Below, piece after piece: positions 1-16,507 of a DNA stretch of 16,507 bases. The DNA comes from a virus. Its lineage: Duplodnaviria > Heunggongvirae > Uroviricota > Caudoviricetes. Made by a program: the position numbers and the translations under genes. The DNA is taken from the IMG/VR virus record IMGVR_UViG_2740892442_000006. The stretch is one strand, 5' to 3'. Under the pieces are notes generated by a model, which did no database searches, was not told where the DNA came from, and saw nothing but the letters and a program-made list of their open reading frames with translations. Within the stretch, counting starts at the first letter, position 1, and each line of letters starts with the position of its first letter.

Positions 1-114
1 ACCCTATGCATCGAAGAGTATTATTCTGCTACCGGAATTTATAATTATGATGATGCTGATGAGCAAACTGAGTTACTTAAAAATGCATTAAGGGACTATA
101 AAATGGCTCACTAG
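1..114 (+). CDS. Possible 3' end of an upstream ORF that continues beyond the window start; product unknown
   Basis: Frame 1 is open from position 1 to a TAG at 112-114 (37 codons, ...LRDYKMAH*). Too short to assess further. Confidence 0.3.
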   Translation, partial: TLCIEEYYSATGIYNYDDADEQTELLKNALRDYKMAH

Positions 115-183
115 TGAAAAGAGGCTAACTTGTATTAGCTCAAACTTGATCTTACACTTTTACTGCATAGGGCTTAACCTAAG

Positions 184-218
184 CTGACAGTCCGCTCTGT
201 GCCAGAAGCGGACGTTAG
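184..218. repeat. Palindromic repeat, copy 1 (internal hairpin GTCCGCT-N10-AGCGGAC)
   Basis: Read directly: CTGACAGTCCGCTCTGTGCCAGAAGCGGACGTTAG. The 7-bp arms at 190-196 and 207-213 are exact reverse complements. An inverted copy lies at 4194-4228 and a partial direct copy at 3007-3023. Confidence 0.7.
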
Positions 219-288
219 CCATAGTGAATAATGCACAATGCAGTGACTGGATACAGATATGGGAAACTATTACTTTTAAAGTCCGACA

Positions 289-316
289 TTCTTGATTCTT
301 GATTCTTGATTCTTGA
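289..316. repeat. Tandem heptamer repeat (TTCTTGA)x4, followed by a degenerate fifth unit TTACTTA at 317-323
   Basis: Read directly: four perfect head-to-tail copies, about 120 bp upstream of the ORF at 435. Confidence 0.9.
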
Positions 317-434
317 TTACTTAATCTAAGTAACCGTGCATTTTTATCCAGCTTCAACTATCCAATGAACCAGTATGTTCTGTAACATAAAAGCAGGCTA
401 TTTAGCCACAATCAATTGATAATTAGGCACTTAT

Positions 435-1487
435 ATGAAACTAAAAAAAATGCTTGAAATGGATTTCATCAAGGAGTTTCAAGAGCACCTAGAAACTGAC
501 TTTGAGCATGAACTCTTACATGCCAGTCTTCGCAACTATTGTTCTCATGGTAATCCTCTGCGCTTCAACAACTTTGCATTTGCAATACGTGAGCTAATAA
601 ATCATGTGCTGAAACGACTGGCACCAAATGACAGAGTTATGGCGTCTCCATGGTTCACTAAAAACAAAAATAACGCCACTGTTACCCGTAAACAGCAAGC
701 AAAATACATCGCCCAGAAGCATATACCCGATCAACTTCTTGATGATGTAGCTATCGAAAGACTAGATGATGGTATAGCATGGTTCAATAAAAACTATTCT
801 TCTTTAAACGATTACACCCATATTAGCGAACATTCATTTGATAGTAACCCCAAACAGTTTTTTGAGAGTGCTAAACTAATAATAGAACTGTGTAACATAA
901 TATTCGATACCTTCGATGAACTTGAGCGTGTTATTACCGAATCAATAATCGAGGAAGTACAGAATGAAGTTACTGACATCACAATGAATAATATCCCTGA
1001 CGAACTGGATATATTATCTTCACAAACAACTGTTGATTGGTGCAATGTTGAATCCATTGAGTTGCTGAACCTTGACGAAAATTATATTTATCTTTTGGTG
1101 CGCGGAATAGTTGAAATTACTAGGCAATACGGGCGTGGTGAGGATTACTTTGCACAGCAAGATTCTTATCCCTTCAAGTTTGCAGTCTCTATTCGCACTG
1201 ATAATTTCAATTTAATAGCACCATTACTTAACACTGTAGTAGTGGATACAGGCTCATGGTATGACGATGGCGAAGGATCTGCTCATTATGACACAATTTA
1301 TACAACCTCCAGATTTTTGGAGATGATCTCACATATAAAAATTAAACCAAAAACAAAGAGAAGATTGTTTCCTGAGCTTAGTACAGTAGTAACACTAGGG
1401 ATTCATGAAAGTGAAGGTATATCAGAATCGGTCGTCCCAGAAATATGTCATCTAAATCAAGGAAGCTTCAATTTAACTGAATTTTAG
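435..1487 (+). CDS. Hypothetical protein (cargo ORF A, 350 aa); no family recognised; contains an R-x4-H motif (RNYCSH, residues 33-38)
   Basis: Long ORF with an ATG start and a weak AGG upstream; first gene of a co-directional cluster in the AT-rich island. No ATPase or other catalytic signature recognised. Confidence 0.75.
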   Translation: MKLKKMLEMDFIKEFQEHLETDFEHELLHASLRNYCSHGNPLRFNNFAFAIRELINHVLKRLAPNDRVMASPWFTKNKNNATVTRKQQAKYIAQKHIPDQLLDDVAIERLDDGIAWFNKNYSSLNDYTHISEHSFDSNPKQFFESAKLIIELCNIIFDTFDELERVITESIIEEVQNEVTDITMNNIPDELDILSSQTTVDWCNVESIELLNLDENYIYLLVRGIVEITRQYGRGEDYFAQQDSYPFKFAVSIRTDNFNLIAPLLNTVVVDTGSWYDDGEGSAHYDTIYTTSRFLEMISHIKIKPKTKRRLFPELSTVVTLGIHESEGISESVVPEICHLNQGSFNLTEF

Positions 1488-1503
1488 GATTATCTATGGA
1501 GAG

Positions 1504-2442
1504 ATGAAAATGTCTAATAAGATCTATAGCCTACAAAGAATGCCTACTGAAGCATTTAAGATATTTGCAATGTCATTGCCACATGGGCCTAATTATGGTA
1601 ATGCGGAATTACTTTCCGCTTGGTCAAATGAAAAAGGGCTTGGATATGGTGCAGTCCTTCAATACAGCAAAAATTCATATGGCCTTGTTGTGCTCAGGCG
1701 ACGGGAAGATTATGTGCTGGTACCTCTCGAGCATGAGATGTGTTTTACCGAGCAGGAGGCATTGGTGCATCTTGATAAGCACCTTTCAGCCGGAGGAGAT
1801 TTATTACCGATTCCATCTGGGCAATCACGTAGAGCCCGACTGGATCATGTTGGTGAGCGGAATGTTTGTCAGGCATTTATACAATTATCGTCCACGATAA
1901 AGTACCGAGGAGCATTTCATTTAATTGTCGAGCTCTATCTGGCATTACCAAAACCTGATGATAACTTCAGAACCGATCTCCAGACCCAAGGATTCAACTC
2001 TAGAATCTGGGAGCTATACCTTTTCGCATGTTTTAAAGAGCAGGGAATTAAAGTTTTTCAAGATTATCCATCTCCGGATTTTATGCTCATGAACGGTAAT
2101 AACAAAGCATATGTTGAGGCGGTCACCGCGAATCCAACTGGTCCGGGCAGCCTAAAGTTGCCTCAAACACAATTCCCCCCCGGAGATCGATTAGCTCGCA
2201 CAGCAGGTGATATGGCAGCACGGTTCGCTAAGACCATCAGATCTAAACTCCAGAGAAAGTATGAAGAACTACCGCATGTTAAAGGATTTCCATTTGCAAT
2301 CGCTATAGCGGATTTTAGCGGTGGGGGCACTATGGTCTGGTCTCGCGAGTCACTTCCAACCTATTTGTATGGGCAAACCGCACATACAGTCAAAACATCC
2401 AAAGGTATGAAGCTGCTGCATTATCAATTGAAAAGCTTTTAG
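1504..2442 (+). CDS. Hypothetical protein (cargo ORF B, 312 aa); family unknown
   Basis: ATG at 1504 preceded by GGAGAG at 1496-1501, 16 bp after the ORF A stop. The downstream frame-0 ORF overlaps its 3' end, so B and C may be one gene split by a frameshift. Confidence 0.75.
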   Translation: MKMSNKIYSLQRMPTEAFKIFAMSLPHGPNYGNAELLSAWSNEKGLGYGAVLQYSKNSYGLVVLRRREDYVLVPLEHEMCFTEQEALVHLDKHLSAGGDLLPIPSGQSRRARLDHVGERNVCQAFIQLSSTIKYRGAFHLIVELYLALPKPDDNFRTDLQTQGFNSRIWELYLFACFKEQGIKVFQDYPSPDFMLMNGNNKAYVEAVTANPTGPGSLKLPQTQFPPGDRLARTAGDMAARFAKTIRSKLQRKYEELPHVKGFPFAIAIADFSGGGTMVWSRESLPTYLYGQTAHTVKTSKGMKLLHYQLKSF

Positions 2443-2504
2443 GCCATGTAAATATTCCGGCAGGACTATTTAACCACCCAGAGATTGAAAATTTATCTGC
2501 TATC

Positions 2505-2903
2505 TTGTTTAGTAATGCTGGAACATTGCCAAAATTCCAGCGAATGGCAATCCAAGCTGAATTTTCCTCACCTATTGTGAAAGCCCGCAGGGTTGGGATT
2601 TTATTTGATAGGACTGAAGGGGCCTTGGAACCAATTGACTTCGATCTAGATATTCAATCGCCTGAATATATTAATCTTTGCGATGGCAAAGAATTTTGGT
2701 GTTTTGAACTTGAAGTATTTCATAACCCTAATGCTGCTTATCCAATGTCCCATGATTTCCTGCCGGGGGCAACACATTGGTTTGAACACAATGGAGAGAT
2801 CATCTGTGAGACCCAATGGAAAAACCAGGTACTTGCATCAGTAACCGAGTTTAGTATTGTTCCAGATGTCGCCGATAAACTCAAAGCCAAGGAAAAGCCG
2901 TGA
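2505..2903 (+). CDS. Hypothetical protein (cargo ORF C, 132 aa as listed); possibly the C-terminal continuation of ORF B
   Basis: The frame is open from 2319 and reads like protein (...YEAAALSIEKLLGHVNIPAGLFNHPEIENLSAILF...), but has no ATG/GTG/TTG before the TTG at 2505 and no convincing Shine-Dalgarno before 2505 or the ATG at 2544. Confidence 0.5.
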   Translation: MFSNAGTLPKFQRMAIQAEFSSPIVKARRVGILFDRTEGALEPIDFDLDIQSPEYINLCDGKEFWCFELEVFHNPNAAYPMSHDFLPGATHWFEHNGEIICETQWKNQVLASVTEFSIVPDVADKLKAKEKP

Positions 2904-3006
2904 TTGCTTGATGCAAGCATATTCTTGAAAGAAGAAAATTGACAAGATTTAAAACTAATAATGAAGGGGGGAATGTTACGAGGTTGTCAGGGCTGCAACA
3001 GCAGCC

Positions 3007-3023
3007 CTGTGTCAGAAGCGGAC
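3007..3023. repeat. Partial direct copy of the palindromic repeat (CTGTGTCAGAAGCGGAC), just after an 8-bp-stem hairpin at 2988-3009
   Basis: 16 of 17 bases match copy 1 at 197-213. Hairpin CAGGGCTG-caacag-CAGCCCTG read directly. Sits between ORF C and the ORF at 3080. Confidence 0.6.
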
Positions 3024-3079
3024 ATTTTAAGCATTCGAGTGTAAGGTCTGTTTTTTAATTTGTAATTTTAGGAGGTAAC

Positions 3080-4033
3080 ATGCCAAAGAAAAGACGGTCT
3101 ATTAGCCAGGTAAAAGAAGACATTTCAATCAGGGTTCTGCGGGAAAAACTACCTCGCGAATGGGTCGTACATAGCTATGGCGCTGACTATGGTATTGATT
3201 GCGTTGTTGAATTATTTGATTTTATTGATGACAGTGAAAGTATTGCAGAAACCCTTGGTGAAAACTTCTTTGTACAACTAAAATCTTCAGATTGTATTGA
3301 ATATTGTACACGTAAAGCCTATGCTCGTGGAAATGTAACCAAAGGAAAGTTAACAGAAGATAAAAGCGATTTTGTCGAAATCCCTGTCGCAAAATTCAAG
3401 TTAGATATATCAGACATTTTGACTGTTCAGTCTATAGGTATTGCAATTCCAGTATTATTGATACTAGTTGACACTAATACAGAAAAGGCATTTTTTATTT
3501 GCCTTAATGATTACATAGATAAAGTTCTCATACCAGAAGACCCGAATTATTCTAAAAAAGACTCAAAGACTATATATATACCTCTTGAAAATGAAATTCT
3601 GGATGATGAAGATGCGCTTGTTCCATTACGTGCATATGGTAAAAGATCAAAAATGTATGGCGCATTCTCACTTTTTAACTATCAATTAAAAGAAATAAAC
3701 CGATTACAAGGTAAAGCGGCCGTACAATTTCCTGTCTCTTTCGATGAAGCTATAGAGATGGTAAATAACTTTATTGTAATTGCTCTTAGACAAGATATAT
3801 GGTCTGGTCATGAATTTTGGAAGCCGATGGTATCGAGCCAAAAGGAGTTGATCCAACTTCAAATAGATATTGATAAAGAGGTAAAACCTGAACATTATGA
3901 ACATTTTTTGAGTTACTGTTCCGAAGTGGTTTGGCATAAGTTAACAAATCTTTCAAATATGTATGAGGAGCTTGTTAGAGAATGGTTCATGCCAACCTTG
4001 CTAGCGACATTAACATCAGCCCGCCCTAAATAA
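3080..4033 (+). CDS. Hypothetical protein (cargo ORF D, 317 aa) with an N-terminal PD-(D/E)xK-like nuclease-fold motif candidate (DUF4365-like by recollection)
   Basis: Strong RBS AGGAGGT at 3068-3074, six nt before the ATG. N-terminal motifs in order: DYGID, VVELFDF, FVQLKSS, consistent with a D...E...QxK restriction-endonuclease-like core. Family assignment is from memory, not a search. Confidence 0.8.
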   Translation: MPKKRRSISQVKEDISIRVLREKLPREWVVHSYGADYGIDCVVELFDFIDDSESIAETLGENFFVQLKSSDCIEYCTRKAYARGNVTKGKLTEDKSDFVEIPVAKFKLDISDILTVQSIGIAIPVLLILVDTNTEKAFFICLNDYIDKVLIPEDPNYSKKDSKTIYIPLENEILDDEDALVPLRAYGKRSKMYGAFSLFNYQLKEINRLQGKAAVQFPVSFDEAIEMVNNFIVIALRQDIWSGHEFWKPMVSSQKELIQLQIDIDKEVKPEHYEHFLSYCSEVVWHKLTNLSNMYEELVREWFMPTLLATLTSARPK

Positions 4034-4193
4034 TAATAGCAATGCTACGCAAAAGCATCCTAGCCCTAAATTCTTAAATAAGGGCTTCATATCAAATTGA
4101 AGCCTTTGTGAACAATAGAAACAACACTAAAAGACACCCCTATCACATTTAGTTGAATAGAAAAATAATAATGCGCCCACGACGATACAATTA

Positions 4194-4228
4194 CTAACGT
4201 CCGCTCCTCGCTCAAAGCAGACTGTCAG
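4194..4228. repeat. Palindromic repeat, copy 3, inverted relative to copy 1
   Basis: The reverse complement of 4194-4228 matches 184-218 at about 30 of 35 positions, by hand alignment. A further ACTGTCAG motif lies at 4253-4260. Confidence 0.65.
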
Positions 4229-4293
4229 ATTTGATTGCATTTTGCCTACGCAAACTGTCAGTTCGAGCCTGAGCTAATACAGCTAACTGGATG

Positions 4294-5397
4294 TTAGCCT
4301 TTTTTAATTTTATTTTTAGATTGTTCAATGTGATGATTTAACACTTCTCTCTTTGCCTCTTCATAGGTTAGCTCTCCATTGATTACCTTATTTTTTATTT
4401 CATTAAAAAATGAGGAGCCTTTGGGATCTTTACTTGATAAAAAAAGACTGGCTTCAGCTCTCCGAAAAGCTTCTTTCCTTGCTTCTATAGAAAATGAATT
4501 AGCAGGGTTATTTTTGTTCATAAGTTGAAGTGCCTTATTATTTATATTCGGGATGTTTTTATCTACAAGAGTTAGTCTTAACTCCGAGAATTTATTTCCT
4601 GATATTTTATAACACTGATTTTCATTTTTTTCAATATAAAGAGATTTGCTTTCTGCGCTACCACATGTCGTAGATGTTCTTGCATCAAGAAAAATAAACT
4701 TTTCTTGAAATCTTTCAATATATTTCATTGCTGTCATGCTAATAATAAAAAGAGCAACTGACACAGCAAAAAGGGATAAGCCTGATACTAAACGATTAAA
4801 ATTAAATTTCCTTTTAATAACTAATGAACTGGCTAGATTGACCATGTTATAGGGGACCATAATTATGAGTCCTATTAATATTATTTTTTCAGGAAGATTG
4901 TTCACTTGTATATGATGTTGAGCCAAGTTTCCAATATATACTGAAATCATAGAGGATATTACTATTTTTGCTGGGGATACATCTCGCAAAAATATGTATA
5001 TATAGACTGTAGTTGCACAAATCATTGCTCCTATTGGAAATGAGAGCATGAAAGCATAAGCTAATGTTGAGTAATTAAGATTTTCTGGGGCTATACCATA
5101 AGCTATGTCAAGCTTAAACTTTGCGATCCATAAGCATACTGAATATGTAAAGCCAGTTACGCCCCACTTAACCACTGTATTATTAAATACTTTATTTAAT
5201 AAATCACGATATCCTATGTATACACTGGTTAATAAAGCTATAGATGATAGAAAAATTGGAGCGGCAATGTATATATTTTCTAGCCATAATGGGTTTTCTA
5301 CAATCAAGTATCCAAAAGGTATTAAGTATATTATAGCCAATAGTTGAGGGTTGTTTAATTTGGATGATGCGTCAACCAAATTATTTTTATATTCCAT
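4294..5397 (-). CDS. Multi-pass inner-membrane protein (about seven hydrophobic segments in the N-terminal ~225 aa, then a ~140-aa charged soluble C-terminal domain); function unknown
   Basis: 367-aa ORF with AGGA about 7 nt upstream of the ATG. Starts 9 bp after the stop of the integrase at 5407-6480, on the same strand. Very AT-rich. Confidence 0.8.
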   Translation of the reverse strand: MEYKNNLVDASSKLNNPQLLAIIYLIPFGYLIVENPLWLENIYIAAPIFLSSIALLTSVYIGYRDLLNKVFNNTVVKWGVTGFTYSVCLWIAKFKLDIAYGIAPENLNYSTLAYAFMLSFPIGAMICATTVYIYIFLRDVSPAKIVISSMISVYIGNLAQHHIQVNNLPEKIILIGLIIMVPYNMVNLASSLVIKRKFNFNRLVSGLSLFAVSVALFIISMTAMKYIERFQEKFIFLDARTSTTCGSAESKSLYIEKNENQCYKISGNKFSELRLTLVDKNIPNINNKALQLMNKNNPANSFSIEARKEAFRRAEASLFLSSKDPKGSSFFNEIKNKVINGELTYEEAKREVLNHHIEQSKNKIKKG

Positions 5398-5406
5398 ATA
5401 ACGTCC

Positions 5407-6480
5407 TTATTTCAACTTTAACGCCAAATCTTCAGCTTTTGGATGATAATACCGCATTAGCATTCTTGGATCTTTATGTCCTGTAATTTTGGTCAGTTCA
5501 TGCATAGGGAAAATTTCAGCAAGTCGAGAAGTTGCTTCATGTCGAAGGTCATGAAATCTTAAATCTTTAAGGAATGATTCATCACATAATGAGTTTGTTT
5601 TCTCGTATCGTTCTCTGGCTCGTTTTACAGCTCGGTCAAAAGCTCGGGTAATCGCGTCTGCACGCATATCAAAAACCTTATCAGCAGCTGGCTTAGAATG
5701 TTCCTTGAGACTGGACAGTATCGTGATGGCTTTCGTTGATAAAGGGACATCGCGGGCATTACCATTCTTAGTATCCGGCAGATGTGCAACTCGCCGATCA
5801 AGATCGATAAAGCGCCATCGAAGATCTGCGATTTCGCTACGGCGCATGGCTGTCTCTAACGCCAGAAGAATGATTGCTGGCAATACTAATGAATGTGTTG
5901 CGGCGATGATATGTTCGATCTCGTTGGCTATTTCCTTTCCTGACGTAACACCGGTTTTCTCAGAAACTACAGGCAGCGCTTCCAGGCGTCTGGTCCTGGA
6001 GTTCTTGGGTTGAGGTTTGCGAATGGCCTCTACGGGGTTCAGCAGGCTCTCCATGCCCCATTCTTTCCGCGAAACGTTGAATACATGAGAAAGTAAGGCC
6101 AAACGCCTTAAAACGGTTGCAGGGGCATAGATTTTCAACCATTCATCTCTCAGCTTGGCGACATCGGCACTCCTGATGCTGGCCATATAGTTTTTCGCCA
6201 GCTGAGTGCCTTTTAGTATCCGCACCAATGATTGGTCTTGCACTGCCCCTTTTTTGTCGGGAACAATCTCTTTTTCATATCGCGTTAGGGCTTCATACAA
6301 TGTCGTAGATTCCGCTTCGCTGCGGCTAAGCCAAACTCCTCTCGCCATTTCTGACTCGATCATTTTGGCCCAAGCTTCTGCTTCTACTTTGGTGTTAAAG
6401 GTTTTGGTTTGAGAGGGAAAACCTCGTTTACGGATTTGAGCTTCCCATTGGTAGTTACCACGTTTGCGTATAGTCGCCAT
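5407..6480 (-). CDS. int: Tyrosine-type site-specific integrase (island integrase)
   Basis: C-terminal catalytic signature FHDLRHEATS...MRYYHP (H-x-x-R-H box and tyrosine). The ORF track starts at a TTG at 6510; the ATG at 6480 (MATIRKRGNYQWEAQIRKRG...) is the more likely start. Confidence 0.9.
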   Translation of the reverse strand: MATIRKRGNYQWEAQIRKRGFPSQTKTFNTKVEAEAWAKMIESEMARGVWLSRSEAESTTLYEALTRYEKEIVPDKKGAVQDQSLVRILKGTQLAKNYMASIRSADVAKLRDEWLKIYAPATVLRRLALLSHVFNVSRKEWGMESLLNPVEAIRKPQPKNSRTRRLEALPVVSEKTGVTSGKEIANEIEHIIAATHSLVLPAIILLALETAMRRSEIADLRWRFIDLDRRVAHLPDTKNGNARDVPLSTKAITILSSLKEHSKPAADKVFDMRADAITRAFDRAVKRARERYEKTNSLCDESFLKDLRFHDLRHEATSRLAEIFPMHELTKITGHKDPRMLMRYYHPKAEDLALKLK

Positions 6481-6568
6481 TTCTGTCTGATTCCTAACGA
6501 ACTGTGGCAATATTGTGGCAAAAAATCCATTTAAATTCGATAGGTATTGATTTTACAAGATCAATTTA

Positions 6569-6617
6569 CGCATTCGTAATGCGAAGGTCGTAGGTTCGAC
6601 TCCTATTATCGGCACCA
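6569..6617 (+). tRNA. 3'-terminal 49-nt fragment of tRNA-Thr (anticodon CGU); not a complete tRNA; likely an att-core direct-repeat copy
   Basis: Anticodon stem-loop with CGT at 6575-6577, T-arm GGTTCGACTCC, 3' acceptor strand and CCA. Matches the 3' part of enterobacterial thrW as I recall it. The upstream sequence has no 5' acceptor strand (GCCGATA) or D-arm. Confidence 0.8.
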
Positions 6618-6631
6618 TTTAAATCAATAAG

Positions 6632-7795
6632 TTACACATCATTAGTACCTTCCTTATTTTTTGACTGGGACAAATTTGGGACCGATGGGTTCAGGATCGA
6701 GTCTATTTGCCGTGCGTGTTCGGTAAGGTGATTAGGTGCAAGGTGAGCATATCGACGAACCATTTCGATAGACTCCCACCCTCCCATTTCCTGTAACACT
6801 GACAACGGGACTCCGGCTTGAACCAGCCAACTTGCCCAGGTGTGTCTCAAGTCGTGAAATCTGAAATCATCAATACCAGCCCGTCTCAGCGCCGCTTTCC
6901 AGGCTGTGTTTGCGTCATACCGCATCTTCCTTACTGTTGGCGCTTTCGTTCCGTCTGGTTTGGTACAGCTTTCCTTGTACACAAATACCCAACGGTGATG
7001 ATTCCCGATTTGTTTTTTCAATACGCGACATGCAGTATCATTCAGCGCAACGCCAATTGCGCGGTTTGATTTACTCTCTTCCGGGTTTATCCATGCCACC
7101 CGGCGCTGCATATCTATTTGTTGCCATTCAAGGTTGATGATGTTCGAGCGTCTTAAACCTGTTGCCAGTGCAAATTCAACAACAGACTTTAATGGCTCCG
7201 GACATTCATCAATCAGCCTTTGTGCTTCATGGGGCTCCAGCCAGCGGATCCGTTTATTCTTTGGTTGAGGCACTTTAATAATTGGTGCCTTATCCAGCAT
7301 TTTCCATTCACGCTCTGCGGCTCTTAGTAGGGCCTTTATAAATGAAAGATGCGTAGCCTTCGTTGCAACGGACGCTGGTTTTGGCGTGTATTCTGGAACA
7401 GGTTTCCCTTTTTTTCTGCATGCTTCTGCCCTGAGTTTCCAGTTTTCCTCATGACGCCGGTTCGTCATTTTCTGCATTGCTGAATAAATTTTTGATTCAG
7501 TAATGTCTCTTAGTTGCATTCCTGCGAAATGTTGAAGCCAGAATCCGATCCGGCTTTTGTCATCGTCCAGTGATTTTTTATGTGCTTTCTCTTCAAGCCA
7601 CCTGACACACGCTTCCTCGAACGTTATATCAGGTATTTCACCAAGTTTGCTGACCCGCCATGCTTCAGCCTTTAGCTTGTCATGGAGTTCTGTCGCCTGC
7701 CTTTTGTCCTTTGTTCCAAGAGACTGTTTAAATCTTTTACCGTTCGGCAATGTGAAACTGGCGTACCATATTTCACCTCTGCGGAAGAGTGACAT
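6632..7795 (-). CDS. int: Lambdoid (P22/SfV/e14-type) phage integrase
   Basis: N-terminus [34 protein letters not shown] is typical of this enterobacterial prophage integrase group; catalytic [10 protein letters not shown]...VRRYAHL. GAGGAA RBS. The 3' end lies 15 bp from the tRNA-Thr fragment. Confidence 0.92.
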
Positions 7796-8022
7796 TTTCT
7801 TTCCTCTGTTATGCCATCACCCGCGCTCACCTGGACAGTATGCAGCGGAGACTGAAGAGCCGCAATGCAGGCTTGTCGTGTTGTGAGGTAAGGAGATTTA
7901 TTCTTAGTGGGATCTTTGCGTGTTGCCTGAAGACGCCCTGTGCGTATCCAGTTAATGGCAGTCGGTCTGGATATCTTGAGAAAATGACAGGCCTCATCGA
8001 GTGTGAGGCTGTATGGCTCCAT
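7672..8022 (-). CDS. xis: Excisionase / AlpA-like HTH protein (about 117 aa from the ATG at 8022)
   Basis: [31 protein letters not shown] is a helix-turn-helix excisionase-like N-terminus. The ATG overlaps the upstream stop (ATGA). The 3' end overlaps the integrase start by about 124 bp in another frame, so the true stop is uncertain. Confidence 0.6.
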
Positions 8023-8327
8023 TATTTCACCTCTTGCTGTGACATTGTTGAAAAATGGATACCAGCTCGTTGCTGCCAGACGATCCAACCGAGAGTCATA
8101 TCCCATGCCATGTATTCGTTATCGCCGTTTTTTGCTCTCCGACGATCTACTAAGTCACCGAAACGCTTTTCCATGAATAATTCATAAGCTTCGCGTTCAT
8201 CTGGTTCTACTTCCAGCGATAGGAGTGCGATTTCATAAGCACGGCGCTCAATATCGTCTCGCACGTCAAGGCTGCTGATACGCTCTTTAATTTCTTTAAT
8301 CAGTTCTTTGTCGGTAAAAGTGATCAT
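8022..8327 (-). CDS. Hypothetical prophage early protein (101 aa)
   Basis: Coding-like codon usage; start overlaps the upstream stop (TAATG) and its stop overlaps the xis start, indicating one coupled operon. Confidence 0.65.
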   Translation of the reverse strand: MITFTDKELIKEIKERISSLDVRDDIERRAYEIALLSLEVEPDEREAYELFMEKRFGDLVDRRRAKNGDNEYMAWDMTLGWIVWQQRAGIHFSTMSQQEVK

Positions 8328-8689
8328 TATGCTCCAGCCTCCGGTGCTTTTGGCATTATTGCCCAGTGAGTGATATTGACGTTTTCAAGGTCCCCGACCT
8401 GAAATGTCCACTGCCATTCTCCGGTTTCTTTTTGTCCCCAGGTGTACCAGAGAGAACGCCTGCCAATTAGCCAGCCTTCTCCGTTAGCATCGAATAACAA
8501 AACACTTTCATTTGCTGGTGGCAGTTCAGCTGACACTGGTATTACTTTGTTTTCCTGTGCTGCACATTTAGCTTCAAGCGCATCGAATTTACGCACCAGG
8601 TATTCAGCATCTGTTTCATTTACTTTCAGATCTCGCGGTACACATCTCCCACGAAGAAACCCTTCCATTTCGAAAACATTCATGCGCAT
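8327..8689 (-). CDS. Hypothetical prophage early protein (120 aa)
   Basis: ORF in the same minus-strand operon, overlapping both neighbours by a few bases. Confidence 0.65.
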   Translation of the reverse strand: MRMNVFEMEGFLRGRCVPRDLKVNETDAEYLVRKFDALEAKCAAQENKVIPVSAELPPANESVLLFDANGEGWLIGRRSLWYTWGQKETGEWQWTFQVGDLENVNITHWAIMPKAPEAGA

Positions 8690-9243
8690 TTGCGTAACTC
8701 CGATAACTCGTTAAAACGTTCCATAAACATCCCGTAGGCATGGCCCGGTGCCTGTGGAATCACTTTGAACATCTCTGTTGCCGGGATACCTTCCAGTACA
8801 GGCCAGAAAGAGCCATCATCAAGCCCGAGATCGCGGCGTTCGGTTGCCAGCATAATGAGATCGGCATATTTCACTGGCGTGCTCATAACAGGAGGTAACC
8901 CGTATTTCTCACGTATTACGGCGTCTATTTTTTCTTCCATCCGTTTATAGTCAGGAAGAAGTCGTTTCAGTGGTGCGGGGATGTCCTGGCAATATGCTTC
9001 TGTTGCATCATGCATTAAAGCTTCAAAAGCAAATTCCTGTGGCACCAGCTGGCTGCAAAGCACCGCATGTTGGGCGACACTGTAGAAGTGTGAAAGATGT
9101 CCTGCAAAGCGACAGATATTTGAAAGGGAAACCGCGATATCGTTAATAACGATGTCGTCTTTATTTATCCTGTCATAATAAAAATGCTTCCCGGAAAAAG
9201 TTTTAATAAATGACATTTTGTTCTCCACGTATATGCGCTGCAC
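8680..9243 (-). CDS. HD-domain phosphohydrolase (YfdR-like, as found in enterobacterial prophages)
   Basis: Ordered H...HD motifs (SVAQHAVLCSQL then ALMHDATEAY) in a protein of about 187 aa; first gene of the leftward operon ending in xis and int. Confidence 0.65.
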   Translation of the reverse strand: MQRIYVENKMSFIKTFSGKHFYYDRINKDDIVINDIAVSLSNICRFAGHLSHFYSVAQHAVLCSQLVPQEFAFEALMHDATEAYCQDIPAPLKRLLPDYKRMEEKIDAVIREKYGLPPVMSTPVKYADLIMLATERRDLGLDDGSFWPVLEGIPATEMFKVIPQAPGHAYGMFMERFNELSELRKCA

Positions 9244-9340
9244 CGCGCTGAATTCGGGTAAAAGGAAGCCCTCACCGTCCGGCGATTATTGAGTCAATTA
9301 CATTTCCATAAATGCCCCCGTAGGGCGGTTAGTTTCTCCA

Positions 9341-9427
9341 CAAAACAGAGAAGAACACCTGCGGTGGCAGCCGCCCGGATGGATTGGGTTATGAGCCCGT
9401 CGTCCGGTGATGCTCTTCTCTGTTTTG
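9341..9427. repeat. Inverted repeat: 17-bp arms (CAAAACAGAGAAGAACA at 9341-9357 and its complement at 9411-9427, one mismatch) around a 53-bp spacer
   Basis: Read directly, in the 435-bp region between the divergent minus-strand and plus-strand prophage operons. Confidence 0.7.
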
Positions 9428-9473
9428 TAAAAAGGACGGTATCCGCCTGACGGCTAATCAGGCATATCACCAG

Positions 9474-9677
9474 ATGGTGAAGCTGGGGATCGTCGAGCAG
9501 CGCGAACGATACAGCCGTACCGCGATTAACAACATCAAAAAATTCTGGTCGCTGACAGCGAAAGGCTGCATGTTCGGCAAGAACATCACCAGTCCTGCAA
9601 ATCCGCGCGAGACGCAGCCGCATTTCTTCGAATCCCGATTCCCTGAGCTGTTAAAGCTGCTCGATACCGTTCATTGA
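9474..9677 (+). CDS. Possible small ORF (67 aa) just upstream of the DUF968-like gene
   Basis: ATG start, coding-like third-position bias, stop 1 bp before the next gene; no recognisable family. Competes with a minus-strand ORF that I rejected. Confidence 0.3.
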   Translation: MVKLGIVEQRERYSRTAINNIKKFWSLTAKGCMFGKNITSPANPRETQPHFFESRFPELLKLLDTVH

Positions 9678-9678
9678 G

Positions 9679-10674
9679 GTGACCGTGAGAGCACTACTGA
9701 CCCCTGAAATAGCCCCGCGTATGGGGATCGTATTGTTCAGACCCGGTTCAGAGCTGATGCCCCTGTTTATGCAGGGGCGTGTCCTGCTGGAGCCTGAGCC
9801 GGAACGTTATTCATCTTTCGCCAGTGGTGCCGTTCCCGCGGCATCACAACCGCTGGCGGATGATCCTGCCGTTCGAGCCGTGTTCTGCAATGAGGCAGTG
9901 ATCCGTCGTGCTGGTGGCGTGGAATGTCTTGAAAGCTGGTTACTTCGTGAAAAGGGCTGTCAGTGGCCTCATTCCGACTGGCACAGCGAGAACATGACCA
10001 CAATGCGACACGCGCCGGGCGCGATCCGTCTGTGCTGGCACTGCGATAACCAGCTGCGCGATCAGTTCACGGAACGGCTGGAATCAATGGCAACGGATAA
10101 CTGTGCCCGCTGGGTGTTGTCTGTTGTGCGTCGGGATCTCGGTTTTGATGACAGTCACGTTGTGACAATGCCGGAACTGTGCTGGTGGCTGATTCGTAAT
10201 GACCTGGCGGATGCCTTACCGGAAAGTGCAGCCCGTAAGGCACTGAGATTACCGAAGCCTGTTGTGCCGTCTGTCACCCGGGAAAGTGACCTTGTGCCTT
10301 CGGTTCCTGCCACCAGCATCATCCAGGATAAGGCGAAAAAGGTGCTGGCGCTGAAAGTGGATCCGGAGTCGCCGGAGTCTTTTATGTTACGCCCAAAACG
10401 TCGCCGCTGGGTTAATGAAAAGTACACGCGCTGGGTTAAGACACAGCCGTGTGCATGTTGTGGAAAGCCTGCTGATGATCCCCACCACCTGATAGGCCAC
10501 GGTCAGGGTGGGATGGGTACAAAAGCGCATGACCTCTTTGTGTTGCCTTTGTGCAGAAAGCATCACGACGAGCTGCATGCGGATACCGTGGCATTTGAAG
10601 AGAAGTATGGCTCCCAGCTGGAGCTGATATTTCGTTTTATCGATCGTGCGCTGGCAATAGGCGTACTGGCGTAA
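9679..10674 (+). CDS. Prophage protein with a C-terminal HNH-like Cys/His cluster (DUF968-like)
   Basis: 331-aa ORF with a GTG start. C-terminus CACCGKPADDPHHLIGHGQGG...CRKHHDELH is a zinc-finger/HNH-type signature. Sits immediately upstream of Q, as in the nin region of lambdoid phages. Confidence 0.65.
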   Translation: MTVRALLTPEIAPRMGIVLFRPGSELMPLFMQGRVLLEPEPERYSSFASGAVPAASQPLADDPAVRAVFCNEAVIRRAGGVECLESWLLREKGCQWPHSDWHSENMTTMRHAPGAIRLCWHCDNQLRDQFTERLESMATDNCARWVLSVVRRDLGFDDSHVVTMPELCWWLIRNDLADALPESAARKALRLPKPVVPSVTRESDLVPSVPATSIIQDKAKKVLALKVDPESPESFMLRPKRRRWVNEKYTRWVKTQPCACCGKPADDPHHLIGHGQGGMGTKAHDLFVLPLCRKHHDELHADTVAFEEKYGSQLELIFRFIDRALAIGVLA

Positions 10675-10687
10675 GTGGAGAACGAGC

Positions 10688-11416
10688 ATGAACCTTGAAG
10701 CTTTACCAAAATATTACTCCCCAAAATCTCCAAAATTGAGTGATGACGCACCGGCGACAGGCTCGGGTGGTTTAACAATTACAGATGTGATGGCTGCGCA
10801 GGGGATGGTGCAGTCGAAAGCACCGCTTGGGTTTGCCTTATTCCTGGCAAAAGTTGGTGTTCAGGATCCTCAGTTTGCGATTGAAGGTCTGCTCAATTAC
10901 GCGATGGCACTGGATAACCCGACATTGAACAAATTGAGTGAAGAAATCCGGTTACAGATCATCCCTTACCTTGTGAATTTTGCCTTTGCTGATTATTCCA
11001 GGTCTGCGGCAAGTAAGGCTCGCTGTGAGCATTGTGCTGGTACTGGATTTCATAATGTATTGCGCGAGGTGGTGAAACACTCCAGAAGCGGGGAATCTGT
11101 TATCAAGGAAGAGTGGGTGAAGGAACTATGTCAGCATTGTCATGGTAAGGGAGAAGTCAGCACAGCGTGCAGAGGGTGTAAGGGTAAAGGTATTGTCCTG
11201 GATGAAAAAAGGACCCGGCTTCATGGCACGCCTGTTTATAAGATTTGTGGGCGTTGCAATGGAAACCGATTTAGCCGTTTACCAACCACACTGGCGCGGA
11301 ATCATGTCCAGAAGCTGGTACCAGACCTGCCGAAGATCTGGGAAAAGTCACTTTCCGCCCGTCCATCACGGCTTATGTGGTGGGAGATGACTGCTTTGAC
11401 CAGCGCGATCGCCTGA
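10688..11416 (+). CDS. Q: Late-gene antiterminator Q homolog (lambda Q family); C-terminus probably altered by a deletion junction
   Basis: N-terminus MNLEALPKYYSPKSPKLSDD...TDVMAAQGM parallels lambda Q as I recall it, followed by CxxCxGxG zinc-finger repeats. The last ~30 codons overlap an N-like reading frame. Confidence 0.75.
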   Translation: MNLEALPKYYSPKSPKLSDDAPATGSGGLTITDVMAAQGMVQSKAPLGFALFLAKVGVQDPQFAIEGLLNYAMALDNPTLNKLSEEIRLQIIPYLVNFAFADYSRSAASKARCEHCAGTGFHNVLREVVKHSRSGESVIKEEWVKELCQHCHGKGEVSTACRGCKGKGIVLDEKRTRLHGTPVYKICGRCNGNRFSRLPTTLARNHVQKLVPDLPKIWEKSLSARPSRLMWWEMTALTSAIA

Positions 11417-12531
11417 TTGACGCGCTGAATAAACCCGGTCCCGGCACGCTTGTCCACCCGACATACGGTGAGTTGAAAGTCTGTGTTGACGGGGAAGTTC
11501 GGGTCAGCACATCGAAGAGTGAAGGGCGTATTGTCCGCTTTGACCTGAAGTTTGTCGAAGCGGGAGATCTCTCTTACCCCACATCAGGCGTGGCGACGGC
11601 GCAGACGCTGATGTCATCCTGTTCTGCACTGGATGACTGCATCAGTGACAGCTTCAGCGGTTTCAGTATCGATGGCGTGGCAGATTTTGTGCAGAACGAC
11701 GTCGTCGGTAATGTCGGCACAATGCTTGGGTATGTTTCTGATGCGATGAAAGTGGTGGATTCTGCCGTATCGGATGCCGCCAGGCTGTTGCAGGGGGATA
11801 TCTCGGTACTTCTTCCGCCGCCATCGTCAGGCAAAAATTTCGTTGAGCAGGTGCAGAAAATGTGGCGTACCGGGAAACGCCTTTATGGTAACGCCAGCGA
11901 CCTGGTCACCATGATCAAAACGCTTTCCGGTGTCAGCCTTGGCAGCGATCTGCAACCGCGCGGCGTCTGGAAAACGGACAGTAAAACCACCGCCACGGCG
12001 ACGCAGCAGCGTAACGTGGTTGCCAGCACCCTTCGTACGACCGCAATCAGCGAAGCGGCGTATGTCGTCACACGATTGCCTGCGCCCACAACTTCCGCGG
12101 TGATGCAGAATGCCACAGTGGGGCAGTCAACAACACCCGCGCAGAGCACCGGCTGGCCTTCTGTCACGCATCCGGCACTGAACAATGCACCGGCGGTGAA
12201 AAACACGGTTGACCTGCCAACGTGGGAAGAACTGACCGACATTCGCGACACACTGAATACGGCAATTGATAAGGAGTTGTCCCGTACAACCAGTGATGCG
12301 CTGTTTCTGGTGCTGCGCCGGGTGAAAGCAGATCTGAATGCGGATATCAACACGCGCCTTGAACAGTCTGCACGGATCATTCAGCGCACGCCGGATGAGG
12401 TTTTACCCGCGCTGGTGCTGGCGGCGACCTGGTTTGATAACGCGGCGCGTGACGCGGACATTATCCGGCGTAATGCCATTACGCATCCCGGCTTTGTGCC
12501 GGTGATCCCTCTGAAGGTGCCAGTGCAATGA
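11377..12531 (+). pseudogene. Mu gp43 (N)-like DNA circularization / tail protein, 5'-truncated
   Basis: Similar in length and position to Mu N, but about 100 residues shorter than I recall for the family. The frame is open from 11275 and overlaps the Q 3' end. GTG start only. Stop overlaps the next start (ATGA). Confidence 0.6.
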
Positions 12532-13606
12532 ACGACAATGTCACGCTACGGGTAAATGGCCGGGAGTGGAATGGCTGGACATCGGTGCGCATCGGTGCCG
12601 GTATTGAACGGCTGGCGCGGGATTTCAGTGTGGAGATCACCCGCCAGTGGCCGGGAGATGAGGGTATCACCACGCTTCAGCCGCGCATTAAAAACGGTTC
12701 AAAAGTGGAAGTGCTGATTGGTGATGAGCTGGTGATCACCGGCTGGGTGGAGGCGACGCCCGTTCGTTACGATGCCCGTTCGGTCAGCACCGGTATTGCC
12801 GGACGTAGTCTGACGGCTGACCTGATTGACTGTGCAGCCGAACCGACACAGTTTAACGGACGCTCGCTGGTGCAGATTGCGCAGGCGCTTGCTGCGCCTT
12901 TCGGCATTGAGGTGGTGAACAGCGGTGCGCCGTCGGGTGTTATTCCTGATGTTCAGCCTGATCACGGTGAAACGGTGATTGAGGTAATAAACAAAATACT
13001 CGGTCAGCAGCAGGCGCTGGCTTACGACGACCCGCACGGCAGGCTGGTGATTGGCGGTATTGGCTCAACGCGGCACATACCGCGCTGGTACTTGGGGAAA
13101 ACATCCTTTCCTGCGATACGGAGAAGAGTATCCGGGAGCGGTTTTCTGTTTACCAGGTGGCGGGGCAGCGTGCCGGAAACGACGATGATTTCGGTGAGGT
13201 CACCACCACCGCGCTGCGGGCCCGCACAGAGGACGCATTTATTGCCCGTTACCGTCCGATGTATATCAGGCAGACAGGGCAGGCCACGGGGGCAGGCTGT
13301 ATTGCGCGTGCTGACTTTGAAGCCCGACAACGGGCGGCGCGGACGGATGAAACCACCTATGTGGTGCAGGGCTGGCGACAGGGTAACGGTACGCTGTGGC
13401 AGCCCAACCAGCGGGTGATTGTCTTTGATCCGGTCTGTGGTTTCGACAATACCGAACTGCTTGTCTCGGAAGTCACGTTTACTCAGGACCAGAACGGCAC
13501 CCTGACGGAAATCCGTGTCGGCCCGCCTGATGCTTATCTGCCTGAACCCGAAGCCCCCGGCGCGCGGAAAAAGAAAAAAGCCAGAGTACAGGAGGACCCG
13601 TTCTGA
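12528..13606 (+). pseudogene. Mu gp44 (P)-like baseplate hub / tail protein, interrupted by a frameshift near 13065-13080
   Basis: Frame 0 (12528-13418) and frame 2 (open upstream of 13157, to 13606) each read like protein: ...GGIGSTRH then ...TALVLGENILSCDTEKSIRERFSVYQVAGQ... The combined length of about 359 aa fits the family. Confidence 0.6.
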
Positions 13607-14154
13607 TGAGGACGATTGAAGCCATGCAGCGACAACTTCTCGGCCTGATTGCGCGGGCAGTGGTGAAAAGCATCAGTGCCGCCACGAAATGTCAGACCGT
13701 GGATGTGTCCCTGATTGCCGGTGAACCCAAAGCCGGGGTTGAACATCTTGAACCCTACGGTTTTACCGCAAGGGCAAACAGCGGCGCGGAAGCGGTGGTG
13801 TTGTTTCCGGATGGCGACCGTTCTCATGCGGTGGTTGTTACGGTGTCGGACCGGCGCTACCGCCTGAAAGGGTTGCAGACGGGTGAGGTGGCTGTCTATG
13901 ACGATCAGGGGCAGTCTGTGACGCTGACCCGGGAGGGGATCGTGGTGGACGGTGCAGGTAAAACGATCACGTTTCGCAATTCACCTAAAGCACGTTTTGA
14001 AATGGACCTGGAAGTGACAGGACAGGTGAAAGACCTGTGCGACTCCAGCGGCACTACCATGTCAGCGATGCGGCTTGCCTATAACGGGCATCGTCACAGA
14101 GAGAACGGTCAGGGCAGTAACACCGACAAACCGGATAAAGCGATGGAGGCATGA
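13606..14154 (+). CDS. Mu gp45-like baseplate assembly / spike protein (gpV-like)
   Basis: About 182 aa, translationally coupled to its neighbours (TGATG upstream, ATGA downstream); position and size match a Mu-type baseplate module. Confidence 0.65.
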   Translation: MRTIEAMQRQLLGLIARAVVKSISAATKCQTVDVSLIAGEPKAGVEHLEPYGFTARANSGAEAVVLFPDGDRSHAVVVTVSDRRYRLKGLQTGEVAVYDDQGQSVTLTREGIVVDGAGKTITFRNSPKARFEMDLEVTGQVKDLCDSSGTTMSAMRLAYNGHRHRENGQGSNTDKPDKAMEA

Positions 14155-14579
14155 TGGAACTGTGGCTGACGGTGAACGGTAAACGCACCTGCGCCAGCGC
14201 ACCGCTGGATCCGCTGACCCGCGCCGTGGTGATTTCCCTGTTTACCTGGCGGCGGGCGGAGCCTGATGACAACGCCGACGTCCCGATGGGATGGTGGGGG
14301 GATACCTGGCCTGCGGTACAGAATGACCGTTACGGCTCCCGACTGTGGCTGCTTCAGCGCAGCAAACTGACCAATCAGCTGGTGCAGACAGTAAGGGGGT
14401 ATATCCGCGAATGCCTGCAATGGATGATTGATGACGGCGTGGTGTCCCGTATTGATCTGGATATCCGCCGCACCGGGATTAATGAGCTGGGTAACAGTAT
14501 CACCCTCTGGCGTCGTGACGGACCGGTAATGATTTCTTTTGATGATCTGTGGAGTGCGATAACGCATGGCGGACAGTGA
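14151..14579 (+). CDS. Mu gp46-like baseplate protein
   Basis: About 142 aa, overlapping both neighbours; order gp45-gp46-gp47-gp48 is conserved. Confidence 0.65.
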   Translation: MMELWLTVNGKRTCASAPLDPLTRAVVISLFTWRRAEPDDNADVPMGWWGDTWPAVQNDRYGSRLWLLQRSKLTNQLVQTVRGYIRECLQWMIDDGVVSRIDLDIRRTGINELGNSITLWRRDGPVMISFDDLWSAITHGGQ

Positions 14580-15624
14580 ATTTCAGCGCCCGACGCTGGC
14601 AGAAAATATCAGTATGCTCCGTAACGATTTATTCGCCAGGCTGGACGTCAGCGACACGCTCCGGCGCATGGATGAAGACGTGCGGGCAAAGGTGTATGCG
14701 GCGGCGCTGCATACGGTTTACGGGTACATCGATTATCTGGCAATGAACATGCTGCCTGACCTGTGCGATGAGTCCTGGCTGGCGCGACATGCTGCGATGA
14801 AACGGTGTCCGCGCAAGGGGGCCACGGCTGCCAGCGGGTATATGCGTTGGGAAGGTGTCAGCGATGGCCTGAAGGTGACCGCCGGGAGTGTTATTCAGCG
14901 CGATGACCTGGTTCAGTACACGGCAACTGCCGATGCAACCAGCTCCGGTGGTGTCCTGCGCGTGCCGATCGCCTGCTCAAGTGCAGGCGCGGTCGGTAAC
15001 GCTGACGACGGTACGTCATTAATCCTGGTCACGCCGGTTAATGGTCTGCCGTCTTCCGGCGTGGCAGATACCCTTACAGGCGGATTTGATACTGAAGAGC
15101 TGGAAACGTGGCGCGCCCGCGTCATTGAGCGGTATTACTGGACGCCTCAGGGCGGGGCTGACGGGGACTATGTCGTCTGGGCTAAAGAAGTGCCCGGCAT
15201 TACCCGCGCATGGACATACCGTCACTGGATGGGAACGGGAACTGTCGGTGTGATGATTGCCAGCAGTGACCTGATTAATCCCATTCCGGAAGAATCAACG
15301 GAAACGGCAGCAAGACAACATATCGGGCCACTGGCCCCGGTGGCAGGCTCTGATTTGTATGTATTCAGGCCGGTGGCACATACGGTGGATTTTCATATCC
15401 GCGTGACGCCGGACACACCGGAAATACGGGCTGCCATTACCGCGGAGTTGCGTTCGTTCCTGCTGCGTGATGGTTATCCGCAGGGAGAACTGAAGGTATC
15501 GCGTATCAGTGAGGCGATTTCCGGTGCGAACGGGGAATACAGCCATCAGTTGCTTGCACCGGTGGACAATATCTCCATTGCGAAAAACGAACTGGCGGTA
15601 CTGGGGACGATTTCATGGACGTGA
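14566..15624 (+). CDS. Baseplate J-like protein (Mu gp47 / e14 JayE-like)
   Basis: About 352 aa, in the expected position between the gp46-like and gp48-like genes. Confidence 0.7.
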
Positions 15625-16199
15625 CAAACGATGATTACATCCGCCTGTTATCGGCACTGTTGCCGCCCGGTCCGGCGTGGTCAGCCAGCGATCCGGCGAT
15701 TGCCGGTGCGGCACCGTCATTAACCCGTGTTCATCAGCGTGCGGATGCCCTGATGCGGGAGCTGGATCCGCGCACCACCACTGAACTGATAAACCGCTGG
15801 GAGCGTCTGTGCGGTCTGCCGGATGAATGTATTCCGGCGGGAACGCAGACCCTTCGCCAGCGTCAGCAACGGCTGGATGCGAAGGTTAACCTGGCGGGCG
15901 GCATCAACGAGGATTTTTATCTTGCACAGCTTGCTGCCCTGGGCAGACCAGATGCCACCATCACGCGATACGACAAAAGCACGTTCACCTGCTCATCGGC
16001 CTGTACTGACGCGGTGAATGCGCCGGAATGGCGGTATTACTGGCAGGTCAACATGCCAGCCGCCACCAACACCACCTGGATGACATGTGGCGATCCCTGT
16101 GATTCCGCACTGCGTATCTGGGGTGACACCGTTGTCGAGTGTGTGCTTAACAAACTCTGCCCGTCGCATACCTACGTAATTTTTAAATATCCGGAGTAA
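15615..16199 (+). CDS. Mu gp48-like tail protein (DUF2313 / YmfQ-like)
   Basis: About 194 aa; N-terminus [23 protein letters not shown] resembles the YmfQ family as I recall it; immediately precedes the tail fiber gene. Confidence 0.65.
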
Positions 16200-16202
16200 T
16201 CC

Positions 16203-16507
16203 ATGCATCGTATAGACACGAAAACCGCGCAGAAGGATAAGTTCGGCGCGGGTAAGAACGGTTTTACCCGTGGTAACCCCCAGACCGGCACGCCTGCCAC
16301 CGATCTGGATGATGACTACTTTGACATGTTGCAGGAAGAGCTTTGTGGCGTGGTGGAGGCATCCGGTGCCAGCCTGGAGAAGGGGCGGCATGACCAGCTG
16401 CTTACCGCGCTTCGTGCGCTGCTGTTAAGCCGCAAGAATCCGTTTGGCGATATCAAATCGGATGGCACCGTGAAAACGGCTCTCGAAAACCTTGGTTTGG
16501 GAGAAGG
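16203..16507 (+). CDS. Tail fiber protein, N-terminal part (continues beyond the window end)
   Basis: N-terminus [29 protein letters not shown] is a typical conserved start of enterobacterial prophage side tail fibers. The ORF is open to the last base. Confidence 0.7.

Follow-up and report, generated by a model that had tools for sequence, protein, structure and literature searches.

What are the genes at positions 435-4033 of IMG/VR virus record IMGVR_UViG_2740892442_000006, a stretch of 16,507 nucleotides (nt) that we analysed whole and call the window, and do they form one system? An earlier note, made from the letters alone, had read this block as four genes of a single undescribed defence or abortive-infection system. 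Our comparisons lead to a different answer. The segment 131-4281, which encloses these genes, is in all likelihood the cargo of a variable slot in a defence island at the thrW tRNA gene, and it is a mosaic of two independently mobile modules that together encode three nuclease-type proteins, A, B and C. The data show what each gene is, that there are three of them, where the modules end and that they move independently, that the genes are under purifying selection, and in which hotspots their homologues lie. An apparently unknown cluster is in this way turned into three concrete, testable candidates, located as follows.

435-1487, + strand: gene A, 350 amino acids (aa), with Pfam domains pP_pnuc_1 and pP_pnuc_2
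1510-2903, + strand: gene B, 464 aa when intact, PD-T7-1-family PD-(D/E)xK nuclease, split in the window
2981-3030, no strand: junction between module A-B and module C; homology to A-B extends up to 2986, homology to C from 2981 on
3080-4033, + strand: gene C, 317 aa, N-terminal DUF4365 domain (DREN-type PD-(D/E)xK) followed by a C-terminal helical bundle

Gene count and module boundaries

We compared the window with complete genomes of Escherichia coli. Positions 1-16507 correspond to the chromosome of E. coli TUM10008 (NZ_CP135658.1) with 0 substitutions and 5 single-base deletions, at window positions 405, 2411, 4532, 9322 and 13071, each within a short run of G or C. Four co-directional open reading frames (ORFs), at 435-1487, 1504-2442, 2505-2903 and 3080-4033, were present as the earlier note had described. 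The deletion at 2411/2412, however, is one missing G inside gene B, which is annotated as a 464-aa coding sequence (WP_001724240.1) in the RefSeq genome of the same strain, and it breaks this gene into the ORFs 1504-2442 and 2505-2903. Gene B is uninterrupted in the TUM10008 RefSeq sequence, in strain PSS-13, in the IMG/VR contig L035, whose protein is 100% identical, in Enterobacter asburiae and on plasmid Rts1 (loci with intact B: L002, L035, L014-17 and L073). The missing G is there in the RefSeq sequence of the same strain and in all relatives examined; the second and third ORFs are therefore a single gene, and the four genes of the earlier note are three.

Other deletions have similar effects. 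The one at 4532 fuses a 75-aa VbhA-family gene to a 296-aa gene, giving ORF 4294-5397, and the one at 13071 splits a baseplate gene; these genes are intact in RefSeq. With B included, the number of genes split or fused is at least three. The location of all deletions in G or C runs, together with the lack of any substitution, argues for sequencing error rather than decay and points to assembly error with the look of long-read indels; the split of B in the window is most likely such an assembly indel and not biology. A one-base assembly indel can produce a spurious additional gene. The ratio of non-synonymous to synonymous divergence (dN/dS) was 0.08-0.40 across A, B and C, and 0.12-0.40 for B with the part downstream of the frameshift included. 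All three genes are under purifying selection.

We then asked whether the cluster moves as a unit, a check that the earlier note had itself proposed, and found that it does not. The genes are carried by 7-8 of 5426 complete E. coli genomes; the whole block is present, at an identity of at least 99.7%, in 7 of them, and these share one recent island. Outside that island C was found together with A-B at none of 9 other A-B loci and at none of about 10 other C loci. C occurs alone at 98% identity in E. coli A134_1EC, next to an integrase fragment, at 85% in a P2-like prophage region of Yersinia without A-B, and at 61-75% in Pseudomonas, where it adjoins Hachiman, an OLD-like ATPase or remnants of integrative and conjugative elements (ICEs). 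Conversely, A-B occurs without C as the sole cargo of a small Enterobacter thrW islet (A 97%, B 94%), on the IncT plasmid Rts1 (97% and 95%), on the IMG/VR contig L036 and, with B broken, in Rahnella (83%). The carriers of the three genes are plasmids, prophages, ICE remnants and islands.

The boundaries of the shared sequence agree with this distribution. The A-B homology block extends from about 185 to 2986 and the C block from 2981 to 4223; the two meet at 2981-2986, which marks a recombination junction. The cluster is thus a recombinational mosaic with visible module junctions.

Within the first module the linkage of A and B is confined to close relatives. Every A homologue of at least 83% identity has B directly after it, and the order and a gap of 16-25 nt are kept in five settings (the E. 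coli island, the Enterobacter islet, Rahnella, Rts1 and L036). Against Enterobacter, the synonymous divergence (dS) is 0.075 for A and 0.064 for B. A homologues of 77% identity or less are never paired with B (36 of 38 viral-contig loci, Klebsiella, Serratia and E. coli plasmids of about 95 kb, which are phage-plasmid-sized), and B homologues at 82% and 60% identity (L018-20) stand without A, so that A and B each also occur alone.

Three nuclease-type proteins

The earlier note recognised no standard signature in these genes. Profile searches, which it had proposed, gave one for each of them: the pP_pnuc domains and the PADLOC model Aga_Nuclease for A, PD-T7-1 for B and the Pfam domain DUF4365 for C. 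NCBIfam held no families matching A, B or C, and sequence searches with the three proteins against PDB chains yielded no meaningful match. Among 50,697 isolated phage genomes searched with tblastn, A and C had no match and B only matches of about 31% identity, confined to its core.

The intact B protein matched the PADLOC model PD-T7-1 at an E-value of 3.8e-83 (277.7 bits), with residues 113-449 aligned to profile positions 114-447 of 452, and the model PD-T7-5 at 3.6e-38; the split window ORFs still matched PD-T7-1 at 4e-48 and 3.2e-23. PD-T7-1 is a single-gene anti-phage system that was selected experimentally in E. coli and acts best against T-even phages (PMC9519451, Vassallo et al. 2022); the related PD-T7-5, also a single-gene E. 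coli system, comes from the same work. It is also active against a T7-like phage (10.1101/2024.12.20.629700) and has been classed as a PD-(D/E)xK nuclease (PMC10952713). In 38 aligned sequences the invariant residues of B include E168, D190 (in SPD) and E203; Val205/Thr206 stand where the Lys of ExK would be expected, and K246 or R238 are possible substitutes. Residues 1-112 lie outside the PD-T7-1 alignment and are conserved in more than 500 full-length homologues. B is thus a PD-T7-1 subfamily with a different N-terminal domain, which is presumably a sensing domain. A defence role of B is well supported by its membership of a family that has been tested.

The A protein matched the PADLOC model Aga_Nuclease from end to end (1.4e-58). 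Its predicted structure presents a helical N-domain, an NTF2/cystatin-like beta domain and a disordered tail that ends in ...NLTEF. Its two Pfam domains are those of the predicted "pPIWI-associating nuclease" family, which owes its name to the association with Argonaute. Neither the window nor the island, L001-L002 or those A-homologue contexts that carry Pfam or RefSeq annotation (the 12 Pfam-annotated loci L006-L017 together with L005 and L073) contained an Argonaute or PIWI gene; the 38 viral A loci were inspected for conserved neighbours only. Phage portal genes (11 loci) and Dam-type methylases (10 loci) are the only neighbours that come back in different A subclades; there is no PIWI-sized partner among them, and they are a mark of location, not partners. 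In Serratia, an A homologue is placed exactly between gpQ and gpA of a P2-like prophage, the position that Rousset et al. (PMC9122126) defined as an anti-phage hotspot of P2. Despite the Argonaute link in its name, this nuclease family lives mostly solo, in phage hotspots and on plasmids.

The earlier note had also pointed to an R-x4-H motif in this first ORF. R52 proved invariant and the second position did not hold, since H57 varies (H/N/Q/S/I). On account of this variable His and of weak fold matches, a HEPN reading of A was rejected.

The ends of the A proteins form a pattern of their own. In the A-family set (P0001-P0120), 71 of the 75 long forms (at least 295 aa) end in Phe and 51 of the 75 in Pro-Phe, typically as ...DDNVPF, and the terminal Phe follows an acidic, disordered tail; 45 short-form homologues are without the tail. 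The window tail is encoded by 1392-1487. An A homologue on the E. coli plasmids of about 95 kb ends in ...APPDFEMDDNVPF. The C-terminal tip of the E. coli single-stranded DNA-binding protein (SSB) is DDDIPF, and many A-family tails resemble it closely, ...PPDFEMDDNVPF being one example. These SSB-tip-like tails suggest a link to replication proteins. From its hotspot and plasmid contexts, A may be a solo exclusion gene, or, in its own clade, a partner of B. An anti-phage function is plausible for A, whose role is the least clear of the three.

Gene C matched the Pfam domain DUF4365 at residues 13-178 (2.8e-15). The PD-(D/E)xK-like core that the earlier note had seen in its fourth ORF was confirmed: the residues of the DxGxD...QxK motif, D36/G38/D40/Q66/K68, are all invariant. 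This motif is needed for the toxicity of the DUF4365 toxin EAT16 (PMC11297309). Conservation in the family is unusually high, with identities of 57-85% for members that range from Yersinia and Pseudomonas as far as cyanobacteria, and there are 447 clusters at 50% identity. The scan of genome contigs with C as a single-protein query returned 7 loci, and an alignment query would have reached further. In a Foldseek search with the AlphaFold model (pLDDT 81), the best solved-structure matches were the DREN-APAZ chains of SPARDA (9qcc, 9vx6 and 9jt2; E 2.7e-5), followed by Holliday-junction resolvases and the homing endonuclease I-Ssp6803I. The alignment with DREN-APAZ spans only about 180 columns; the C-terminal 135 residues are a conserved helical bundle and not APAZ, and neither the window ORFs nor the surroundings of C homologues gave an Argonaute or PIWI match. 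Apart from SPARDA, the DREN nuclease is thus also found, without Argonaute, in a widespread and highly conserved protein of about 320 aa, for which an anti-phage function is plausible.

A cargo slot in a thrW island

The AT-rich block described by the earlier note was confirmed, the GC content being 0.39 at 131-4281 vs 0.56 on the prophage side (9500-16507). A repeat search, together with comparison to empty-site genomes and to a Shedu variant, defined the ends of this block.

124-130 and 4282-4288, no strand: 7-bp target-site duplication GCTAACT, flanking the cargo
131-225, no strand: left terminal inverted repeat, starting with TGTATTAGCTCA, with hairpin hpL at its inner end
190-213: hairpin hpL, GTCCGCTCTGTGCCAGAAGCGGAC, 24 nt
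4187-4281, no strand: right terminal inverted repeat, ending with TGAGCTAATACA, with hairpin hpR at its inner end
4199-4222: hairpin hpR, GTCCGCTCCTCGCTCAAAGCAGAC, 24 nt

The two terminal inverted repeats are imperfect and about 95 nt each, and GCTAACT was found exactly twice in window positions 1-4400. Hundreds of E. coli genomes have nothing in this slot. Empty-site genomes (AH50; L075) present an intact terminator hairpin, GAGGCTAACTGGATGTTAGCCTTTTTT, between a 70-aa ORF and the VbhA-family gene, which are convergent and belong to the backbone; the loop of this terminator is where the cargo sits. The Shedu gene sduA takes its place between the same ends in strain CT282. No transposase was found between the terminal inverted repeats, and the outer terminal inverted repeat was found only at this slot among the loci compared. 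The cargo thus has the features of a transposon-like carrier without a transposase.

The homology blocks shared with other genomes begin and end at the hairpins. At several unrelated loci, cargo modules (A-B, C, Shedu, HEC-08 and a STAND-like ATPase) lie between 24-nt hairpins of two types, which share the form GTCCGC-N12-GCGGAC and differ in the loop; pairs of the hpL...hpR kind enclose the candidate defence gene HEC-08 in E. coli Nissle and the STAND-like ATPase in L036. A degenerate copy of hpL lies at 3000-3023, within the module junction, and in about 500 E. coli genomes the junction sequence stands directly after a truncated integrase gene. Further copies were located outside the window:

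L014: hairpin copies at 6679 and 9515
L036: hairpin copies at 4162, 6991, 7033 and 11627
L078: hairpin copies at 7022, 10234, 11248 and 11290

Hairpin-related sequence was found in 2014 of 5426 E. coli genomes, at about 3000 intergenic places that carry no annotation. The hairpins may be recombination sites, mobilisation ends or shared terminators. An integron attC reading was rejected: one copy fits RYYYAAC...GTTRRRY, and the other copies are without core sites. A cargo slot with contents exchanged at short hairpins may help to find further defence genes.

The island as a whole is about 19.6 kb long and thrW-integrated, with the intact thrW 19.6 kb upstream, just after proA. The earlier note had placed the cargo beside an island integrase and a neighbouring prophage, at a tRNA-Thr site. 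This stands: the island integrase is followed by a second integrase with a prophage remnant, and the site is thrW, of which the window holds only the 3' 49 nt.

5407-6510, - strand: island integrase; a second integrase and the prophage remnant lie beyond it
6569-6617, + strand: thrW 3' fragment, tRNA-Thr(CGU), 49 nt, an exact suffix of the annotated thrW and the right end of the island

The thrW fragment is an att-type repeat at the boundary of the island with the element that follows. Neither ARAGORN nor Rfam called a tRNA in the window. The 112-nt "tRNA-Ser" that RefSeq annotates at this place in many E. coli genomes is not a tRNA-Ser, and is really the 49-nt thrW 3' fragment.

After the intact thrW, the island carries Lamassu (LmuA/LmuB), a Septu-like PtuA/HNH pair, HigA, remnants of traJ, trbJ and trbL, and copies of the insertion sequence IS1. 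LmuA matched at 9.7e-156 and LmuB over its full length with a reported E-value of 0, and the PtuA/HNH pair corresponds to PDC-M01; this part of the island, upstream of the window in the same chromosome, is covered by L001 1-5249 and L034 28875-32001. The cargo slot comes next, and it is followed by the VbhA-family gene, the 296-aa gene, the island integrase and the thrW fragment. The window cargo is accordingly one of at least four defence loci on the 19.6-kb island. ORF 4294-5397 (- strand, 367 aa) is an artefactual fusion of the 75-aa VbhA-family gene, which is antitoxin-like, and the 296-aa protein (PHROG 26661); both are conserved island backbone and not cargo.

A scan for promoters and terminators gave signal no better than background. 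One short tandem repeat was found upstream of gene A:

288-315, + strand: heptamer ATTCTTG repeated four times in tandem, 120 nt upstream of gene A

Its copy number ranges from 2 to 5 in related loci (5 in ES3, 3 in L036, at least 2 in Rts1) and may tune expression. In Rts1, an IS5 is inserted beside the repeat.

Beyond the island, window positions 6632-16507 hold a degraded composite prophage. Besides an integrase it contains yfdR/S/T-like genes and a DUF968 gene, KilA-N and antiterminator genes that are truncated, and a block of baseplate and tail-fibre genes of the Mu/P2 type.

Possible modes of action and relation to known systems

Most likely, A, B and C are three independently acting nuclease effectors. 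Module 1 would be a co-transcribed pair, A being a predicted nuclease of the prokaryotic Argonaute (pAgo)-associated type that does without Argonaute. From homology to the tested family, B would be an effector of innate anti-phage defence that works on its own and probably cuts DNA after an infection has been sensed, with its divergent N-terminal domain setting the trigger. Module 2 would consist of C, a stand-alone DREN-type non-specific nuclease that stays inactive until its helical domain responds to infection; this domain would gate the nuclease, for example via oligomerisation, as in SPARDA, where DREN is switched on by assembly. The picture of C as a gated nuclease is drawn by analogy with SPARDA, the EAT16 toxin and the Divona cassette. 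The anti-phage roles of A and C, as well as triggers and substrates, are inferred.

Several points weigh against this reading. Fold searches with A, a nuclease by prediction, returned only weak, non-specific matches (Z of 8.1 or less). C had no match in PADLOC-DB 2.0. The trigger of B may differ from that of the tested PD-T7-1 protein, given the unaligned first 112 residues, and B would be inactive in the source strain if the window frameshift were real there. In Rahnella, B has decayed into three frames in two independent assemblies (L006/L007 9078-10464), and in E. coli ES3 it is truncated by IS1 (L004 7112-7903), A being intact in both; because of these two cases, module A-B is not always maintained.

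The idea of the earlier note, that all ORFs of 435-4033 form one undescribed multi-gene defence or abortive-infection system, could draw on co-directional, tightly packed genes in one AT-rich block beside an integrase, and on the conservation of the whole block in the 7 E. coli genomes. These genomes, however, represent the same recent island, C is never found with A-B elsewhere, the homology blocks join at 2981-2986, and two of the ORFs are one gene. The single-system reading is largely refuted by these comparative data, and we consider it very improbable. What stands of the earlier proposal is defence as such, first read from context and now backed by the validated family of B, by Lamassu and the Septu-like pair on the same island and by the hotspot positions of A and C homologues.

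A narrower alternative makes A and B a two-component system, a variant of PD-T7-1 in which A is a sensor, regulator or second effector and C an unrelated neighbour. The recurrent adjacency with constant order and spacing, the similar dS of both genes and the constant presence of B behind close A homologues speak for it. But the pairing lies within one narrow clade and could reflect inheritance as a single hairpin-bounded cassette; more distant A homologues go without B and B homologues without A, PD-T7-1 is functional as a single gene (PMC9519451), and A remains intact where B is broken. We regard this as unlikely. A related scheme, to which we give a similarly small weight, has A-B as a hitherto undescribed two-gene defence module in which the disordered tail of the orphan A, by its acidic tip with a terminal Phe, docks on the replication or repair machinery and A so licenses or complements B, with C as a new stand-alone DREN-type system gated by its helical domain.

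The genes might also not protect the host at all, being addiction or toxin modules, exclusion factors serving their carriers, or cargo in decay, B then being a genuine pseudogene in this strain. All three reside on mobile carriers, they are rare among complete E. coli genomes, DUF4365 domains can be outright toxins, as in EAT16 (PMC11297309), and broken copies of B are present in Rahnella, ES3 and the window. Purifying selection on all three genes runs counter to this, as do the anti-phage activity measured for the B family (PMC9519451; 10.1101/2024.12.20.629700), the lack of any cognate antitoxin-like small gene beside A, B or C in the contexts examined, and the nature of the window indels, all of them G/C-run deletions with no substitution. 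We find such an explanation improbable, somewhat more so than the two-component one. Three independent nuclease effectors in a variable slot thus remain the preferred reading, with the A-B pairing, the SSB-like tails and the hairpin-bounded cargo modules as secondary leads.

Compared with known systems, the cluster adds a new member or variant to kinds already known and is not a new kind of system. B matches the profile of PD-T7-1, over about three quarters of its length, and that of PD-T7-5, and is like them in its putative PD-(D/E)xK-type core, its size (464 aa vs 452 positions of the PD-T7-1 profile) and its location on islands, prophages and plasmids; it differs from PD-T7-1 in the unaligned first 112 residues, in the conserved partner A upstream and in being split here. 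A matches both domains of the pAgo-associated nucleases (pP_pnuc_1/pP_pnuc_2) and the full Aga_Nuclease model of PADLOC, but it is without a PIWI partner, its clade is solo in P2-like hotspots and on phage-plasmid-sized plasmids, and many of its members carry the SSB-tip-like end.

C shares with SPARDA (short pAgo plus DREN-APAZ) the DUF4365/DREN domain and the DxGxD...QxK motif, and its best structure matches are DREN-APAZ chains; unlike SPARDA, it has neither APAZ nor a nearby Argonaute, the helical bundle of its C-terminal half (about 135 aa) is unrelated, and it is always solo. Divona, a single-gene DUF4365 anti-phage cassette of the Vibrio cholerae chromosomal integron, has homologues in E. 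coli that were reported within 20 kb of integrases (Darracq, Littner et al., 10.1101/2024.07.02.601686). In C as in Divona, one protein joins a DUF4365/Mrr-like nuclease at the N-terminus to another domain at the C-terminus, and C lies 1.4 kb from an integrase. The C-terminal domain of Divona is described as crr6 (PF08847), for which the C-terminal domain of C and 3 homologues gave no match at an E-value of 10 or less; the published assignment may use more sensitive profile methods.

Finally, the locus resembles the variable defence hotspots of P2-like phages, P4-like satellites and integrative islands (Rousset et al. 2022, PMC9122126) in its conserved backbone with one slot that is empty or holds Shedu or A-B-C, and in the A homologue at gpQ-gpA. 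It differs from them in its carrier, which has terminal inverted repeats, is flanked by a target-site duplication, sits in a terminator hairpin and has its cargo exchanged at short hairpins, an arrangement not described in PMC9122126.

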